Shown: positions 2,011-7,586, counted from the first letter of the stretch. The stretch: DNA of 7,586 nucleotides from a virus (UHGV-1434521), one strand, 5' to 3'. Translations and numbers: made by a program. Notes: generated by a model from the sequence alone, not told the origin.

Positions 2011-2385
2011 TTACTCCTGACAGGTAACAGTCTGTAAATAACGGCCTTTTCTAATAACAACACGACAGGCATCTTTAATATCAACGGAATAACCATCTTT
2101 AATCAAATCAAAATACTGATATTTCATACCTTTTGCATCAACAAACGTAACGGAAACGTCAAAGCCAAGTTGTGAAAAAGAATTAATAGAAAGTCGGGGT
2201 AAGTCACTGGACGAATCAGGCGTTACCGCCCTCGCCTGTTCAGCATAAGCAGATTTAATAGCTGAGATTTCATCAACATTCTTTCCAGACTGGAGCCAGA
2301 AACCAAACGCAAGCCCCAGCGCCAAAAAAGAAAGCATTAATATAAGACGGTTCGATTTGCGAAAATAAATTTTAGTGAGGCGCAT
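2011..2385 (-). CDS. XI: pXI, in-frame internal-start product of gene I (C-terminal 124 aa)
   Basis: In-frame Met241 (MRLTKIYFRK) is at the same position as the M13 pXI start (MKLTKIYLKK). ATG at 2385-2383 with GAGGA about 13 nt upstream. Inferred by homology of position only. Confidence 0.55.
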   Translation of the reverse strand: MRLTKIYFRKSNRLILMLSFLALGLAFGFWLQSGKNVDEISAIKSAYAEQARAVTPDSSSDLPRLSINSFSQLGFDVSVTFVDAKGMKYQYFDLIKDGYSVDIKDACRVVIRKGRYLQTVTCQE

Positions 2386-3105
2386 ATAATAATTAAATCC
2401 TCTGTGAACAGAAAATTGACCGTGCGTGATAAATGGTGGCAAAAGCGAAAATGCGCCATGAGGATAATTATCTGTGAACGCTTGTTTGGTATTGTAAGCA
2501 GAATAAAGAGATTTTCCTGTATATATCCATTTATCAACAGTGATTGAATTAACATTATCACCATATTTGACAATGCCAAAGTGTACCTTTGGTAAAGAAA
2601 ATCTCGCCCCTGAAACCAAATTCATAATGGAGCCAACAAAAGGAATGTTTAATTTATCTGAACGGCGACAATAAACAACATGCTCAGCAAGTGCCAGACG
2701 AGCTTGCTTATCCATTATCGAAATATCCTGAATCAAAAATATAATATCCCAGCCTAATTTTCTGGCATGTAAAAACCAGTCAATAACAGGTTGTCTGTCT
2801 TTATCACCCCATGAGCGGGAATTAAACCAAGTACCACATTCATCAAGTACAAGGAGGCCATTACGGGATTCATCGTAAGATGCATTCCCAATACCAATAG
2901 CAAGTAAATCATTTAATGAAGGCTTGTCAGGAATGCGAATAACGCGCGTTTTTTTCGCATAACGCCCAACCATAGGCATATTATGCAATTTAAGATCAAG
3001 ATTAGTGGCAACAGGACAACCCTTAGCAAGTCTTTCCTGTATTCTGGAAACACTAACAAGTGTCTTGCCTGAGCCTAATTTGCCTGTTACTACATAAACC
3101 GCCAT
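2011..3105 (-). CDS. I: Filamentous phage assembly ATPase pI (Zot-like), 364 aa
   Basis: N-terminus MAVYVVTGKLGSGKTLVS carries Walker A GKLGSGKT. Further blocks match M13 pI as recalled (LLVLDECGTWFNSRSW, IDWFLHARKLGWDIIFL, AEHVVYCRR, YNTKQAF). ATG at 3105-3103 directly follows the gVI stop. Confidence 0.95.
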   Translation of the reverse strand: MAVYVVTGKLGSGKTLVSVSRIQERLAKGCPVATNLDLKLHNMPMVGRYAKKTRVIRIPDKPSLNDLLAIGIGNASYDESRNGLLVLDECGTWFNSRSWGDKDRQPVIDWFLHARKLGWDIIFLIQDISIMDKQARLALAEHVVYCRRSDKLNIPFVGSIMNLVSGARFSLPKVHFGIVKYGDNVNSITVDKWIYTGKSLYSAYNTKQAFTDNYPHGAFSLLPPFITHGQFSVHRGFNYYMRLTKIYFRKSNRLILMLSFLALGLAFGFWLQSGKNVDEISAIKSAYAEQARAVTPDSSSDLPRLSINSFSQLGFDVSVTFVDAKGMKYQYFDLIKDGYSVDIKDACRVVIRKGRYLQTVTCQE

Positions 3106-3447
3106 TTAAATCACCCTGTTTGCATAATCAAGAAATTTTTGTTTTAAATCGAAAACAAAAACACTGATACGAGTAACCATAATAACGTTAACACACGCCT
3201 GAAAATGGTCAGGCAATACAGACGCCATTAAATGGGAGAAATCAGCAGGTAAACCGTTATACATGACCTCAGCAAGGTACTGCATTAAAAGCGTAACAGT
3301 TGTTGTAATTAATGCGACCAATGCAAAGGCGATTAATCCTGTTCTGGTAGCAAGTCGAGCTAAAAAACTCGCCACATAGCCAATAAACAAAGGAACAAGA
3401 CCAATAAGAAAACGCAACAATGCAGGAATACCTAATAATAAAGGCAT
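3106..3447 (-). CDS. VI: Minor coat protein pVI, 113 aa
   Basis: [13 protein letters not shown]... parallels M13 pVI MPVLLGIPLLLRF, with a conserved C-terminal VFDLKQK-like block. ATG at 3447-3445 overlaps the gIII stop (TGATG). The track's GTG at 3450 adds one residue and is less likely. Confidence 0.9.
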   Translation of the reverse strand: MPLLLGIPALLRFLIGLVPLFIGYVASFLARLATRTGLIAFALVALITTTVTLLMQYLAEVMYNGLPADFSHLMASVLPDHFQACVNVIMVTRISVFVFDLKQKFLDYANRVI

Positions 3448-4712
3448 CACTCACCCCCTTTGCGAAGCAATGAAGTTAAAGAAGTAAAGACATACCAGAA
3501 CGTAAGGCAATAAAAAACCCATGAAAGAACATCTTTAATAGTCAGTAATTTATCGCAACCAATATCAATCTGATAAACCTCTCCGGGAAATATAATAAAA
3601 TCAGAGCAGCCGTTACCATTGGGTAAATTAGGCAGCATAGCACCTTTATTTAAAAATGCTTCCCATAAAGCACCGTGAGAATCCTTTTCAATTCCCAATT
3701 CAGAATCAGCTAAAGTAGAAGCGCCATCTAATTCAGAGTCGCCCTTTCCATAACGAGAATCACCACCTGAAGGGTCAGCAAAACGGCCAGCCCCCCGCGT
3801 AAGATTGTTAATGGAATCGTCAAGACGATTTATATTATTCCTGGTTTGTTCATCGGCATTTTTTTTATCATCTGATGAAGTGTCTTTCTCCGTTAATTTA
3901 TCATGAATATCGCTGGCTATTTTGGGTGAAGCACCTTCGATCGCAGACTGAATATCACCTTTAGAAAGACTGGAACCACTAGAGCCACCGCCAGAACTAC
4001 CGCCACCGGACTCACCACCGCCAGACTCACCACCACCGGACTCACCACCGCCAGACTCACCACCGCTGGACTCACCACCGCCAGACTCACCACCACCATT
4101 TTGGGGGGTTGAGGGTTTATCAGAGGGGTCAGCTACAGCACCTGTAGGCTTCCATGTTGCAGCGCAAACAGTACCATCACCCTGACAAACAATGACACCA
4201 GTAGCCTCATATTCACAGCCGTTATAGTAGATATAGCGACCACCATCATATGAATCAACATTATTAAATACACCTTCTTCTGGCGGCTTCGCTTCACAAA
4301 TTTCTTCTGGTGTCGGGTCAGTAGGTTTTTCATCAGGAACAGAACGCTGAATATTACCAACAATATAAGCCGTTAAAGACCAATATTTATCCTTCTGCCC
4401 TGGTGAATCGCTGTAAGTACAATCGCCAGTAAAAACAAGACGGAATTCAGAATCAGGCCAGATACCCTCATAAGTTGGTTTAATCCGAGTAAATACACTC
4501 TGAGCACTGGATTTAGCACCCTGACAAGCGGAGGCCTGCATAGCAGCATCAATATAGTAAACCGTTATCTTAGAGCCATCCTGATTGGTTATTTGCTTAC
4601 TTTCAGCGTAGGCAGAACTTTGATAAGTGGATTTAGTAATGCTTTCCCATGACTCAGCATGTGAAAAAGGAGAAATGAGGACAGCGGAAAGAATTAATAT
4701 TTTCCTTCTCAT
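3447..4712 (-). CDS. III: Minor coat / adsorption protein pIII, 421 aa precursor
   Basis: Start moved to ATG 4712-4710 ([19 protein letters not shown] signal peptide); the track's upstream extension overlaps gVIII. Contains a block resembling the Ff TolA-binding N1 domain ([23 protein letters not shown]), a (GGGES)n linker, and a C-terminal anchor (GCDKLL...[14 protein letters not shown]) like M13 pIII. Confidence 0.9.
3972..4097 (-). repeat. Tandem 15-bp repeats inside gIII encoding the Gly-rich (GGGES)n linker
   Basis: Units ggactcaccaccgcc / agactcaccaccacc are repeated about 8 times on the plus strand and translate on the minus strand to [40 protein letters not shown]. Confidence 0.9.
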
Positions 4713-4758: not shown

Positions 4759-5001
4759 TCAAACCGCTTTTGAAGAGAATTTTTTGAAAATACGAATGGC
4801 AAGCCCAGCGCCAACCACAGCAACAACAACAGGCCATACTTTACCAATGAGATCATTTGCCTGAGTCAACAAAGCATCCATTGCCTGACCTGCATAATCA
4901 GTACCACCTGTAGCGCCTTCAGCCGCAAAAGAACTTGCAGAAATAAAAAGCGCAGTTGAAGCCAGAGCAATTTTATATTTAACAGTAGACAGAATTTTCA
5001 T
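4759..5001 (-). CDS. VIII: Major coat protein pVIII precursor (80 aa; predicted mature 54 aa)
   Basis: Signal peptide ends SFA|AEG as in M13. It has an acidic N-terminus, a hydrophobic core, and the basic tail [10 protein letters not shown], which matches the IKe/M13 C-terminus ([10 protein letters not shown] / LFKKFTSKAS) as recalled. GGAG RBS 8 nt upstream of ATG 5001-4999. Confidence 0.95.
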
Positions 5002-5020: not shown

Positions 5021-5116
5021 TTACATTAATCGGTCAGAAAATGATTTAAATGAACCGACCGCATAGAAAAGGGCAAAACCAAAGGTATAAGCCCCGAAGA
5101 AATAAACGATATACAT
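5021..5116 (-). CDS. IX: Minor coat protein pIX (31 aa)
   Basis: MYIVYFFGAYTFGFALFYAVGSFKSFSDRLM is a small hydrophobic protein ending FSDRLM (compare M13 pIX ...FTRLM). Its start overlaps the gVII stop (TAATG). The track merged it into a 74-aa ORF. Confidence 0.8.
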   Translation of the reverse strand: MYIVYFFGAYTFGFALFYAVGSFKSFSDRLM

Positions 5117-5202
5117 TAACGAAAGACCCCCGCAGTAATCGCGCCGAGGCCAAAAGAAATAACGATGCCAGACGCTATCAAAATTTGAATAACATCGTCC
5201 AT
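5116..5202 (-). CDS. VII: Minor coat protein pVII (28 aa)
   Basis: Manual translation MDDVIQILIASGIVISFGLGAITAGVFR parallels M13 pVII (...IQISVVLCFALGIIAGGQR). AAGG RBS 7 nt upstream. Not in the supplied track because it is under 60 aa. Confidence 0.85.
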   Translation of the reverse strand: MDDVIQILIASGIVISFGLGAITAGVFR

Positions 5203-5204
5203 AT

Positions 5205-5522
5205 TTAACCTTTGATCTCTGCGATGCCACCATCGGAAGAAACATTATAAGTTACACCTTCCCTACCCTCCATTGACCACGCACGGACATAGACAGGAAT
5301 TTGAACTAATTTCCCAATGAAAGCATTCGCCTGGTTCATTAGACCTGCGTTAACGAGAGCCTGAGAAACTCGAATAATAATTTGATCCTGCTTTGTACCA
5401 CCAAAACCATCAGGTATTTCAAGGCCAATACCAATTTCATTATAATAGCCCTGACCATTAACTTTATTACGTTGGCGGGCTCCCAACATTTTACCCTTAA
5501 CGAAAAGACCATAATTAGACAT
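5205..5522 (-). CDS. Gene-V-position protein (105 aa); putative ssDNA-binding/replication-switch protein by synteny only
   Basis: Fills the gap between gII and gVII exactly, with a strong AAGGAA RBS 6 nt upstream. The sequence (Gly-rich, GFGG) does not resemble M13 gVp as I recall it, so the function is assigned by position, not homology. Confidence 0.6.
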   Translation of the reverse strand: MSNYGLFVKGKMLGARQRNKVNGQGYYNEIGIGLEIPDGFGGTKQDQIIIRVSQALVNAGLMNQANAFIGKLVQIPVYVRAWSMEGREGVTYNVSSDGGIAEIKG

Positions 5523-5533
5523 ATTACTTTCCT

Positions 5534-5848
5534 TTAATGCCAGCTACTGGCGTGCGAAATACGGTTGTAATCGAAAATAAAACCTTTCTCATAAATCCAT
5601 AAGGGGATTTCCGCTGGCTTGGCTTCCAGCGTTCTTATTAGCGGAACAACGTTATTAGAGTCTGGTGAATCACAATAGAAATTAATATCGATACCGAACG
5701 AAAGCAATTCTCTTCTATGGCGATAAAAAGTGTTATGAGGTAACATTTCTTTCATGTTAGCCCCTTGTTTCCAAAGTAAATAAGTTGACTGTATTTTTCT
5801 TGGCAGTTTCGTTATTTTTTCATCACTTAAAATAGCATTCTGATTCAT
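5534..5848 (-). CDS. X: pX, in-frame internal-start product of gene II (C-terminal 104 aa)
   Basis: In-frame ATG at 5848-5846 (MNQNAILSDE...) is preceded by GGGAG with a 7-nt spacer, and parallels the M13 pX start (MNIYDDSAVLD). The alternative in-frame ATG at 5896 lacks an SD. Confidence 0.5.
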   Translation of the reverse strand: MNQNAILSDEKITKLPRKIQSTYLLWKQGANMKEMLPHNTFYRHRRELLSFGIDINFYCDSPDSNNVVPLIRTLEAKPAEIPLWIYEKGFIFDYNRISHASSWH

Positions 5849-6628
5849 TTCTATTCTCCCTACATATTCAGAGAATAATTGACGTGGTGTTTTCATATTC
5901 CAGTTAGCGCCAAGCGTTAAATTTAAATCAATAAGCTCAGTTGTTCTTAATGTTAATTCAATACGTAATTTATCTTTCGTCCAGTCCAGTAACCCGGCTC
6001 GTACAAACTCTTCGGCTATCTGGTGCCCTTTTTTACCAGAAACGTGTTCATCATATTTTGAATAAAATTTCAGACTCCATCGACGGGAGTTTTTACCTAA
6101 ATAAACTGTACCGCCTTTCCCACATGCGCGACCATGGCGTGTTTTAGCTTTAAATTCGGCGGCATAAAGCCATGATCTGACATTTTCCAGCGTAGATAAT
6201 GAATACATGTAATTAATGTCAACACGTGAAATTTTATACTGACCTGCCATAACGGCTTTATAAGACGCTAAATCATGAGGAATATTCAATAAGGATAAAA
6301 TCCTGGCATAGACCGTCAACATGAGCCCTTGTATATCATCCGACCCAACAACAGAATGCCCCTGCAGAAACTTGGAAGGATTACCATCAATGTACAAATG
6401 TGTCGCTTTACCTTCGCCATTAGATCCTATCGATCGTACTTTCATCGTTGCTTCATGCGAACCGCGAACAGTCAGTCGCTTAACGGTTTCCCACTCAATT
6501 GCACCGTCAGCATCAACGCTGACAACACTCCCCGCCGGAAGCGGTTTGTGTGTGCAAGGGAAAATCCCGGTAAGCCAATCGATCACGAATAAATCCTCAA
6601 AATTGCAAAAATGACGACTTACTAACAC
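5534..6628 (-). CDS. II: Rolling-circle replication initiator pII (Phage_CRI / gene II family), 364 aa
   Basis: The C-terminal block NNVVPLIRTL matches M13 pII NNVVPLVRFI, and an internal block LQGHSVVGSDD matches LQGHNVFGTTD. It is first in the gene order. The apparent start is GTG at 6628-6626 with no obvious SD, so the start assignment is uncertain. Confidence 0.88.
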   Translation of the reverse strand: MLVSRHFCNFEDLFVIDWLTGIFPCTHKPLPAGSVVSVDADGAIEWETVKRLTVRGSHEATMKVRSIGSNGEGKATHLYIDGNPSKFLQGHSVVGSDDIQGLMLTVYARILSLLNIPHDLASYKAVMAGQYKISRVDINYMYSLSTLENVRSWLYAAEFKAKTRHGRACGKGGTVYLGKNSRRWSLKFYSKYDEHVSGKKGHQIAEEFVRAGLLDWTKDKLRIELTLRTTELIDLNLTLGANWNMKTPRQLFSEYVGRIEMNQNAILSDEKITKLPRKIQSTYLLWKQGANMKEMLPHNTFYRHRRELLSFGIDINFYCDSPDSNNVVPLIRTLEAKPAEIPLWIYEKGFIFDYNRISHASSWH

Positions 6629-6755: not shown

Positions 6756-6938
6756 ATGGCAAAGCGCACGACTTATAACGTGACGGAAGAAAGAAAAATG
6801 AAACTAGAACGACTGGCTATAAATGCCAGTGTAAAACTAGGAAAAACAATTACATGGACAGAGATTTTAGGTTATCTGATTGATAACTACTCTAAAGATG
6901 CAGCAGAAGATCTCATGTCTGCCAAACAAAAGGATTAA
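6756..6938 (+). CDS. Small ribbon-helix-helix-like DNA-binding protein (60 aa); candidate repressor or antitoxin
   Basis: MAKRTTYNVTEERKMKLERLAINASVKLGKTITWTEILGYLIDNY fits a strand / helix / G-x-T turn / helix RHH pattern (CopG/Arc-like). It is divergently transcribed from gII. Weak RBS. Confidence 0.55.
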   Translation: MAKRTTYNVTEERKMKLERLAINASVKLGKTITWTEILGYLIDNYSKDAAEDLMSAKQKD

Positions 6939-6995: not shown

Positions 6996-7090
6996 AAATT
7001 ATAAGCAGCAAGGACGTTAACGAAAAGAAAACTAGTATCGACATTCGAAATGTTAACTATTATTAACAAATAGAGTAATGGAAGAATATA

Positions 7091-7586
7091 ATGATCACTA
7101 TAGAAGAAGCAACATCGGTCCATGAATATTTAACAAATTACTATCAAAACTCTGATGATCCTATCTCTCCTCCGGGAATAAAAAACATAGAGCTTTTAGA
7201 GTCTGCCATAGCAAGACCTTTTATGACCATGAACAGAAAGGATGTCTATCCAGATGATTTAGATAAAGCCGCAGCTCTATTTCATGGTGTCATATCCAAC
7301 CACTGTTTCCATAATGGTAATAAAAGAACAGCACTTCTACTAACCATGTGCTTTTTAGACCGAGCTGGATATTGGCTGGATAAGTGTGATGACCTGCAAC
7401 TCTTTGAATTTACAAGAGGTGTTGCGGCACATGAGATATGTGAAAATAGAATTGATGAAATAAAAACAATCAAGGCATTTTTCCGAAGTAATTCACGGAA
7501 GAAAAAAATCACAGATGAACAATTGAGTTTTATTGCATTAAGCAGGCATCTAACCAACGCAGGTTTCAATATAGAAGACGATGGTG
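7091..7586 (+). CDS. Doc/Fic-family (death-on-curing-like) toxin-domain protein, 3'-truncated by the window edge (at least 165 aa)
   Basis: Manual translation from ATG 7091: MITIEEATSVHEYLTNYYQNSDDPISPPGIKNIELLESAIARPFMTMNRKDVYPDDLDKAAALFHGVISNHCFHNGNKRTALLLTMCFLDRAGYWL... It contains HCFHNGNKR, matching the Doc-type motif HxFx(D/N)(G/A)NKR, and the N-terminal region parallels P1 Doc as recalled. No stop before the window end, which is why it is absent from the ORF track. Confidence 0.8.
   Translation, partial: MITIEEATSVHEYLTNYYQNSDDPISPPGIKNIELLESAIARPFMTMNRKDVYPDDLDKAAALFHGVISNHCFHNGNKRTALLLTMCFLDRAGYWLDKCDDLQLFEFTRGVAAHEICENRIDEIKTIKAFFRSNSRKKKITDEQLSFIALSRHLTNAGFNIEDDG

Follow-up and report, generated by a model that had tools for sequence, protein, structure and literature searches.

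Gene III and its neighbours

The window, that is, the whole stretch of 7,586 nt analysed here, carries phage genes that all lie on the minus strand and follow the canonical inovirus order. The order runs from gII (5534-6586) through gV (5205-5522), gVII (5116-5202), gIX (about 5021-5118) and gVIII (4759-5001) to gIII (3447-4712), gVI (3106-3447), gI (2011-3105) and gIV (738-2003), and two orphan ORFs (360-668 and 9-242, also on the minus strand) come after gIV. gIII encodes the attachment protein g3p, 421 aa plus the stop codon. gVIII, directly upstream of it, encodes the major coat protein, which is 63% identical to IKe pVIII and is so annotated in homologous prophages. The amino acid identity to IKe is 72% for pIV, 68% for pVII, 66% for pI, 55% for pIII and 53% for pVI; the replication proteins pII and pV are 26% and 18% identical to those of IKe, respectively, and pII is 57% identical to that of I2-2.

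Neither orphan ORF gave a significant match in Pfam or NCBIfam. ORF 9-242 has a CxxC…CxxC spacing, and its zinc-finger match fell below threshold. ORFs 360-668 and 9-242 are probably h1 and h2 of the paper that described the UPΦ prophages. On the other side of the phage genes, beyond gene II, we observed a toxin gene of the Fic/DOC ('death-on-curing') family (7106-7586, plus strand; PF02661, E 1.8e-13), which is truncated at the right end of the window and preceded by a conserved 60-aa ORF (6756-6938, plus strand) that matched no family. The prophage of E. coli strain UM146 and other copies carry three other ORFs in place of the Fic/DOC region, and the window agrees with UM146-type copies only up to about 7000-7011. 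Because other copies have different ORFs there, we regard the region beyond gene II as a variable cargo slot.

The start of gene III was placed at the ATG at 4712 (MRRKILIL...), in agreement with the IKe alignment and with RefSeq annotation of homologous prophages, in which the same frame is labelled 'attachment protein'. A 469-aa ORF starting from the ATG at 4856 was rejected as the gene, as it overlaps gVIII. The 421-aa g3p aligned end to end with the g3p of IKe, I2-2 and the Erwinia phage PEar1 at 53-54% identity, with small indels in the linkers only. Among prophage copies its length varies from 414 to 430 aa.

Domain layout of the attachment protein

The g3p sequence is laid out, on the minus strand throughout, as a signal peptide (residues 1-19; 4656-4712), which aligns with the annotated 19-aa signal peptide of IKe, a first domain that we call N1 (residues 20-125, 106 aa; 4338-4655), a Pro-rich interdomain linker (residues 126-136, 11 aa; 4305-4337), which aligns with IKe PDEEPSEQTPE at 64% identity, an Ff-N1-like TolA-binding domain (residues 137-192, 56 aa; 4137-4304), a Gly/Ser/Glu-rich linker with GGGES repeats (residues 193-247; 3972-4136), and a C-terminal domain (residues 248-421; 3450-3971) with similarity to IKe, I2-2, PEar1 and fd. 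The C-terminal domain includes a hydrophobic anchor at about residues 395-416 (3465-3530). The GGGES repeats are encoded by a tandem array with a 15-nt unit present in 7.6 copies (3985-4098). No NCBIfam model matches g3p; the matches that define the domains come from Pfam and PDB.

N1 stands directly after the signal peptide. Residues 22-125 match PF21443 ("G3P, pilus binding domain") over profile positions 2-105 of 105 with an E value of 2.3e-25 and 89 bits (cut-off 27), and residues 20-128 align without gaps to the IKe "Attachment protein G3P" structure PDB 4EO0 (E 3.1e-26). The identity of N1 is 45% to IKe and I2-2, and 43-45% over IKe, I2-2 and PEar1. Ten positions are invariant in the family (W22, C63, A66, K67, F74, P86, C98, P104, K107 and W111), among them both cysteines, Cys63 and Cys98. 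Because N1 belongs to the same Pfam family, shows no indels and keeps both cysteines, it is, as judged from sequence, a plain homologue of the IKe pilus-binding domain and not a novel domain. An AlphaFold2 model of residues 20-195, built on a shallow alignment of close relatives only, reached a mean pLDDT of 57 (about 45-60 over N1) and was not used.

The TolA-binding domains of IKe and Ff, both with solved structures, are homologues of the second domain. PDB 4EO1 (IKe) matches residues 130-195 (E 3.6e-25), fd N1 structures (1G3P, 2G3P, 1TOL and 8B3O) match residues 137-224, 1FGP is a further fd N1 match, and PF05357 lies at residues 135-176. Its four cysteines (Cys139, 166, 176 and 183) align with the four of IKe and fd N1, and its identity is 77-79% to IKe and I2-2 and 52% to fd N1. 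By analogy with these domains, it would bind the C-terminal domain of TolA. After the Gly-rich linker comes the membrane-anchored C-terminal domain, homologous to those of IKe and Ff; residues 196-418 align with the fd C-terminal domain (fd g3p residues 207-403, 8B3O).

This arrangement agrees with the proposal of the first-pass annotation that the protein has the IKe-type order, with the pilus-binding domain first and the TolA-binding domain second: the alignment with IKe, I2-2 and PEar1 holds end to end, 4EO0 is followed by 4EO1, and PF21443 precedes PF05357. The 23-residue Ff N1-like block that the annotation had placed just before the Gly linker was found there, encoded at 4152-4220 on the minus strand, within the TolA-binding domain. 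The size that it had given for the preceding part, a domain of about 170 residues, has to be corrected. The span 4215-4655, whose translation starts at the beginning of the mature protein (ESWES...) and stops at the Cys in ...YYNGC, comprises 147 codons and is not one domain but the 106-aa N1, the 11-aa linker and 30 residues from the start of the TolA-binding domain; about 165 residues are reached only if the 19-aa signal peptide, upstream of that span, is counted. The annotation had also called the N-terminal domain divergent. It is so in that 45% identity to IKe and I2-2 is far from near-identity, but it is a homologue of IKe N1 and not something new.

The standard Ff order, with N1 followed by N2, was named by the annotation as an outcome that would overturn its reading, and the alignment does not show it. 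In g3p the Ff-N1-like domain begins only at residue 137, past an unrelated domain of 106 aa, instead of right after the signal peptide, and no F-pilus-binding N2 was seen. A BLASTP comparison of N1 with Ff N2 gave an E value of 1.1, and no part of g3p aligned with fd residues 88-206 (N2), full-length fd matching through its N1 and C-terminal parts only. The preceding domain thus shows no detectable similarity to Ff N2, and the annotation had likewise seen no resemblance to M13 N2. That lack alone could have meant a new domain, and nothing else speaks for such a domain or for the Ff order; with PF21443 and 4EO0 both matching within residues 20-128 at E values of about 1e-25, we give practically no credence to either an Ff order or a fold unlike any g3p domain.

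The similarity to IKe, I2-2 and PEar1 varies along the protein. It is 47-53% in the signal peptide, 64-73% in the Pro-rich linker, 71-79% in the TolA-binding domain and 47-53% in the Gly-rich linker. The C-terminal domain as a whole is 52-54% identical, with 42% in its first half and 66-70% in its last 76 residues. Against IKe, the divergence of N1 (45%) differs only slightly from that of pVI (53%) or of the first half of the C-terminal domain (42%).

Identity and spread of the prophage

A megablast search of 5,426 complete E. coli genomes with the window found the prophage in 62. One match alone spanned 80% or more of the window in 47 of the 62, and the best match reached an identity of 99% or more in 27. 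The matches in these genomes were nearly all chromosomal, often in tandem copies, and adjoined hipBA, a neighbourhood that we take to be the dif region. Strain KFu015 carries a prophage at least 99% identical to the window in tandem beside hipBA. No dif site was found within the 7,586 nt of the window itself; strain UM146 has a perfect dif 30-60 nt outside the position of the window's left end. A circular Salmonella "plasmid" of 7,938 bp (PNUSAS210186) is the same element as the window.

These features correspond to those of the UPΦ group described by Shapiro and Putonti in 2020, which comprises tandem prophages at dif with structural and assembly genes like those of IKe and I2-2 (PMC7307601). 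UPΦ phages have a replication module unlike that of IKe, two ORFs of no known function past gIV, and a g3p with GGGES repeats (PMC7307601), the number of which differs between UPΦ phages (PMC7307601). They have been reported in E. coli, Salmonella, Klebsiella, Citrobacter and Yersinia (PMC7307601). In our analysis, tandem integration at dif was seen through the prophages at least 99% identical to the window and the dif of UM146, the structural and assembly genes are related to those of IKe and I2-2, and the two orphan ORFs after gene IV and the GGGES repeat of g3p are both present. The window is a dif-integrated filamentous prophage of E. coli, on the minus strand, and, as compared with the published description, most likely belongs to the UPΦ group (PMC7307601). 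An identity with CUS-1/YpfΦ, which the dif-region location in UM146 had suggested, was dropped because the UPΦ paper limits what YpfΦ has in common with UPΦ to genes II and V, at more than 85% identity (PMC7307601).

Some copies depart from the usual setting. The chromosome of E. coli EC5502 (NZ_CP092647.1) gave 15-16 separate matches to the prophage, and in E. coli KE48 the prophage lies on a 385-kb plasmid (NZ_CP141085.1) and not on the chromosome. Another 'plasmid', pCREC572-6 of E. coli strain 572, a clinical urine isolate (NZ_CP183160.1, 14,488 bp), consists of two copies of an inovirus genome joined head to tail, with genes ordered as in IKe/I2-2 and with gene II frameshifted in one copy; it is presumably a replicative form.

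Taken together, the window holds gene III of a UPΦ-type, dif-integrating prophage of Enterobacteriaceae, encoding an IKe-type g3p whose mechanism would follow that of IKe by homology, a reading to which we assign a probability of about 0.85. For IKe, a published account assigns binding of the retracting pilus to the first domain of g3p and binding of TolA to the second (PMC6431161, citing Jakob et al. 2012). The pili whose tips IKe uses are those of the IncN and IncI2 groups. By the same scheme, five copies of g3p would sit at the virion tip, with N1 binding the tip of a retractile pilus as the primary receptor. Pilus retraction would draw the virion tip to the envelope, where the second domain could then bind the C-terminal domain of periplasmic TolA; the corresponding domain of IKe folds independently of N1 and is exposed at all times. 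The C-terminal domain would anchor g3p in the virion cap and serve in insertion, uncoating and entry.

N1 divergence, receptor specificity and known g3p systems

We asked how N1 is distributed and how it varies. A HMMER scan with N1 alone over 1.84 billion representative proteins was exhaustive and gave only 14 matches; the N1 family is small. Two of the 14 (P0022 and P0023) are repeat proteins of unrelated look. P0023 (1,140 aa) carries a unit of about 50 aa repeated 13 times in tandem (…TWKDIITSYNTAGVKTEAEYDNNDGSSVTDYYTPASADALNQQ…). The units show weak similarity to the N-terminal 65 residues of N1 (E 2.7e-6, 29% identity), which may reflect chance, compositional bias or distant homology. 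Word-indexed searches with N1 alone or with residues 1-195 returned only close UPΦ fragments, mostly truncated or frameshifted. A search of genome and viral contigs through the conserved TolA-domain motif yielded 35 loci, all with the same architecture. A contig binned as a 'Candidatus Nanosynbacter' MAG (L008, JARKOR010000214.1) encodes g3p residues 1-195 that are 100% identical to those of the window; this Saccharibacteria-binned contig is most likely a mis-binned enterobacterial contig.

Over the related g3p, the identity of N1 to that of the window is graded, while the TolA-binding domain stays at 54-100%. N1 is 94-100% and 81-84% identical in UPΦ alleles, 72-75% in Izhakiella and Rosenbergiella, 62% in a Salmonella fragment, 49% in Providencia, 45% in IKe and I2-2, 41-43% in PEar-like g3p, 40% in Arsenophonus, 32-33% in three further sequences (L035, L036 and P0021) and 18-39% in metagenomic contigs. 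For the ten distant relatives among 21 related g3p, the identity to the window is 18-45% in N1 and 54-77% in the TolA-binding domain. No fewer than eight N1 types, with 18-62% identity to that of the window, are found on conserved TolA-binding and anchor domains. In relatives with an N1 identity of 84% or less, the h1 candidate ranges from partly conserved (64% in L035) through weakly similar to undetected, and the h2 candidate was undetected.

Substitution rates were estimated by the Nei-Gojobori method, and seven comparisons, all but that with the distant IKe, were informative. In each of the seven, dN was higher in N1 than in the other two g3p domains, and in five it exceeded that of every other phage gene; in one (L028) gII was slightly higher. 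At N1 identities of 72-84%, dN/dS was 0.13-0.16 in N1 and 0.03-0.12 in the other g3p domains and phage genes. On these comparisons N1 is the fastest-evolving part of g3p. Positive selection on N1 was considered and rejected: dN/dS was 0.13-0.67 and never above 1, the highest values arising from very few substitutions. Because the gene III ORF is intact in the related loci compared, dN/dS lies well below 1 and UPΦ virions are released, we regard gene III as functional.

The most telling comparison is with the relative L035, in which identity to the window is 96% for pI and 93% for pIV but only 33% for N1. Similarity by blastn is absent over 4345-4694, which codes for N1 (L035:3320-3640), though present on both flanks; it is also absent over 3819-4140, corresponding to the Gly linker and the first part of the C-terminal domain. 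Annotated proteins with the L035-type N1 exist in E. coli, Salmonella, Y. enterocolitica, Enterobacter, Citrobacter and Franconibacter, and a search of the 5,426 complete E. coli genomes did not find this type. By sequence, then, two N1 types only 33% identical exist on backbones whose assembly proteins are 93-96% identical, in the same host species. The N1 of L035 may have arisen by recombination or by extreme local divergence, which are inseparable here because saturation of synonymous sites extends to the flanks (dS 1-2).

From this evolutionary pattern, which is specific to N1, we infer that N1 is probably the host-specificity module, as the annotation had proposed, with a receptor perhaps unlike that of IKe: N1 is 45% identical to its IKe counterpart, and its pilus may be other than the IncN and IncI2 pili. 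The authors of the UPΦ paper likewise considered that g3p variants might use different conjugative pili (PMC7307601). A broader proposal is that the PF21443 N1 is an exchangeable receptor-specificity cassette in Enterobacterales inoviruses and that the UPΦ receptor differs from IncN/IncI2 pili; we hold it tentatively, at somewhat less than even odds.

The divergence of N1 could also be drift under relaxed constraint, or escape from host or antibody pressure, in a phage that still shares its pili (IncI2, IncN) with IKe and I2-2. N1 dN/dS is below 1 in every comparison, so weaker constraint could explain the fast evolution instead of receptor switching, and core N1 positions are invariant across the family. 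Moreover, an IncI plasmid was present in four of four UPΦ-carrying isolates, and the authors suspect IncI pili (PMC7307601). This explanation has to contend with an N1 in which, at 45% identity, over half of the residues have changed, with PEar phages whose C-terminal domain is about 90% and whose N1 is 53% identical to IKe and which infect another host genus (Erwinia), and with the N1 types of 33% identity on assembly backbones 93-96% identical in the same species, which drift alone does not easily produce. We consider it unlikely, though worth keeping in view. It is still less probable that the receptor of N1 is a surface structure encoded on the chromosome, such as a type IV or chaperone-usher pilus, which would make the phage plasmid-independent. 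The breadth of hosts would suit such a receptor, with the prophage across E. coli, Salmonella, Klebsiella, Citrobacter and Yersinia and relatives in Izhakiella, Rosenbergiella, Providencia and Arsenophonus; the related dif-integrating phage YpfΦ has a broad host range with no pilus receptor identified, and PEar phages infect Erwinia amylovora with no plasmid requirement reported. However, IKe and I2-2, the sole characterised members of the domain family, depend on conjugative pili, and no direct evidence points to a chromosomal receptor.

If N1 is indeed an exchangeable cassette for receptor specificity, the receptor of UPΦ N1 would be the pilus of another conjugative group or a chromosomal pilus, and the two N1 types in the same host species would reflect receptor partitioning. 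The question matters because resistance plasmids are selected against by filamentous phages that need conjugative pili. About 1% of complete E. coli genomes carry UPΦ prophages, as do other clinical Enterobacteriaceae. Virions were released from infected cultures, and new hosts could not be infected (UPΦ901) (PMC7307601); the identity of the pilus bound by UPΦ N1 would explain both the spread of the prophage and these failed laboratory infections.

The architecture itself is already known: it is the IKe layout, it is represented in Pfam and PDB, and the phage group was described in 2020. The domain-resolved view, with N1 as the fastest-evolving domain present in several discrete types, was not found in the searchable literature and is an incremental addition. 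UPΦ phages have in common with the window the host range, the dif-linked tandem prophage, the IKe-like genes, the two ORFs past gene IV and the GGGES g3p; the UPΦ paper treats g3p variation mainly in the Gly repeat and does so without a domain-level analysis of N1 (PMC7307601).

The g3p of the Erwinia phages PEar1, 2, 4 and 6 has the same IKe-type architecture, and its N1 is 43% identical to that of the window. Compared with IKe, PEar1 is 84-95% identical in the signal peptide, TolA-binding domain, Gly linker and C-terminal domain and only 53% in N1, an N1-specific divergence sharper than that of the window, which goes with the switch of host genus to Erwinia (Erwinia amylovora). The g3p of the Ff phages (M13, fd and f1) has a TolA-binding domain (52% identical, with the four cysteines) and a C-terminal domain homologous to those of the window. 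In Ff, however, the protein begins with the TolA-binding domain and the F-pilus-binding N2 comes after it, whereas in the window the TolA-binding domain comes second, behind an unrelated fold of the pilus-binding type.

The closest correspondence is with IKe and I2-2 (Lineavirus), whose g3p has the same domain order, Pfam families and Cys pattern and is collinear with that of the window throughout, with a similar Pro-rich linker between the first and second domains, a Gly-rich linker after the TolA-binding domain and a homologous C-terminal anchor. The differences are that N1 of the window is only 45% identical to that of IKe and I2-2, which share 91% identity between themselves, that the linker repeat is GGGES in the window and GGGDT/GGGST in IKe/I2-2, and that the window phage integrates at dif and has a replication module unlike that of IKe.
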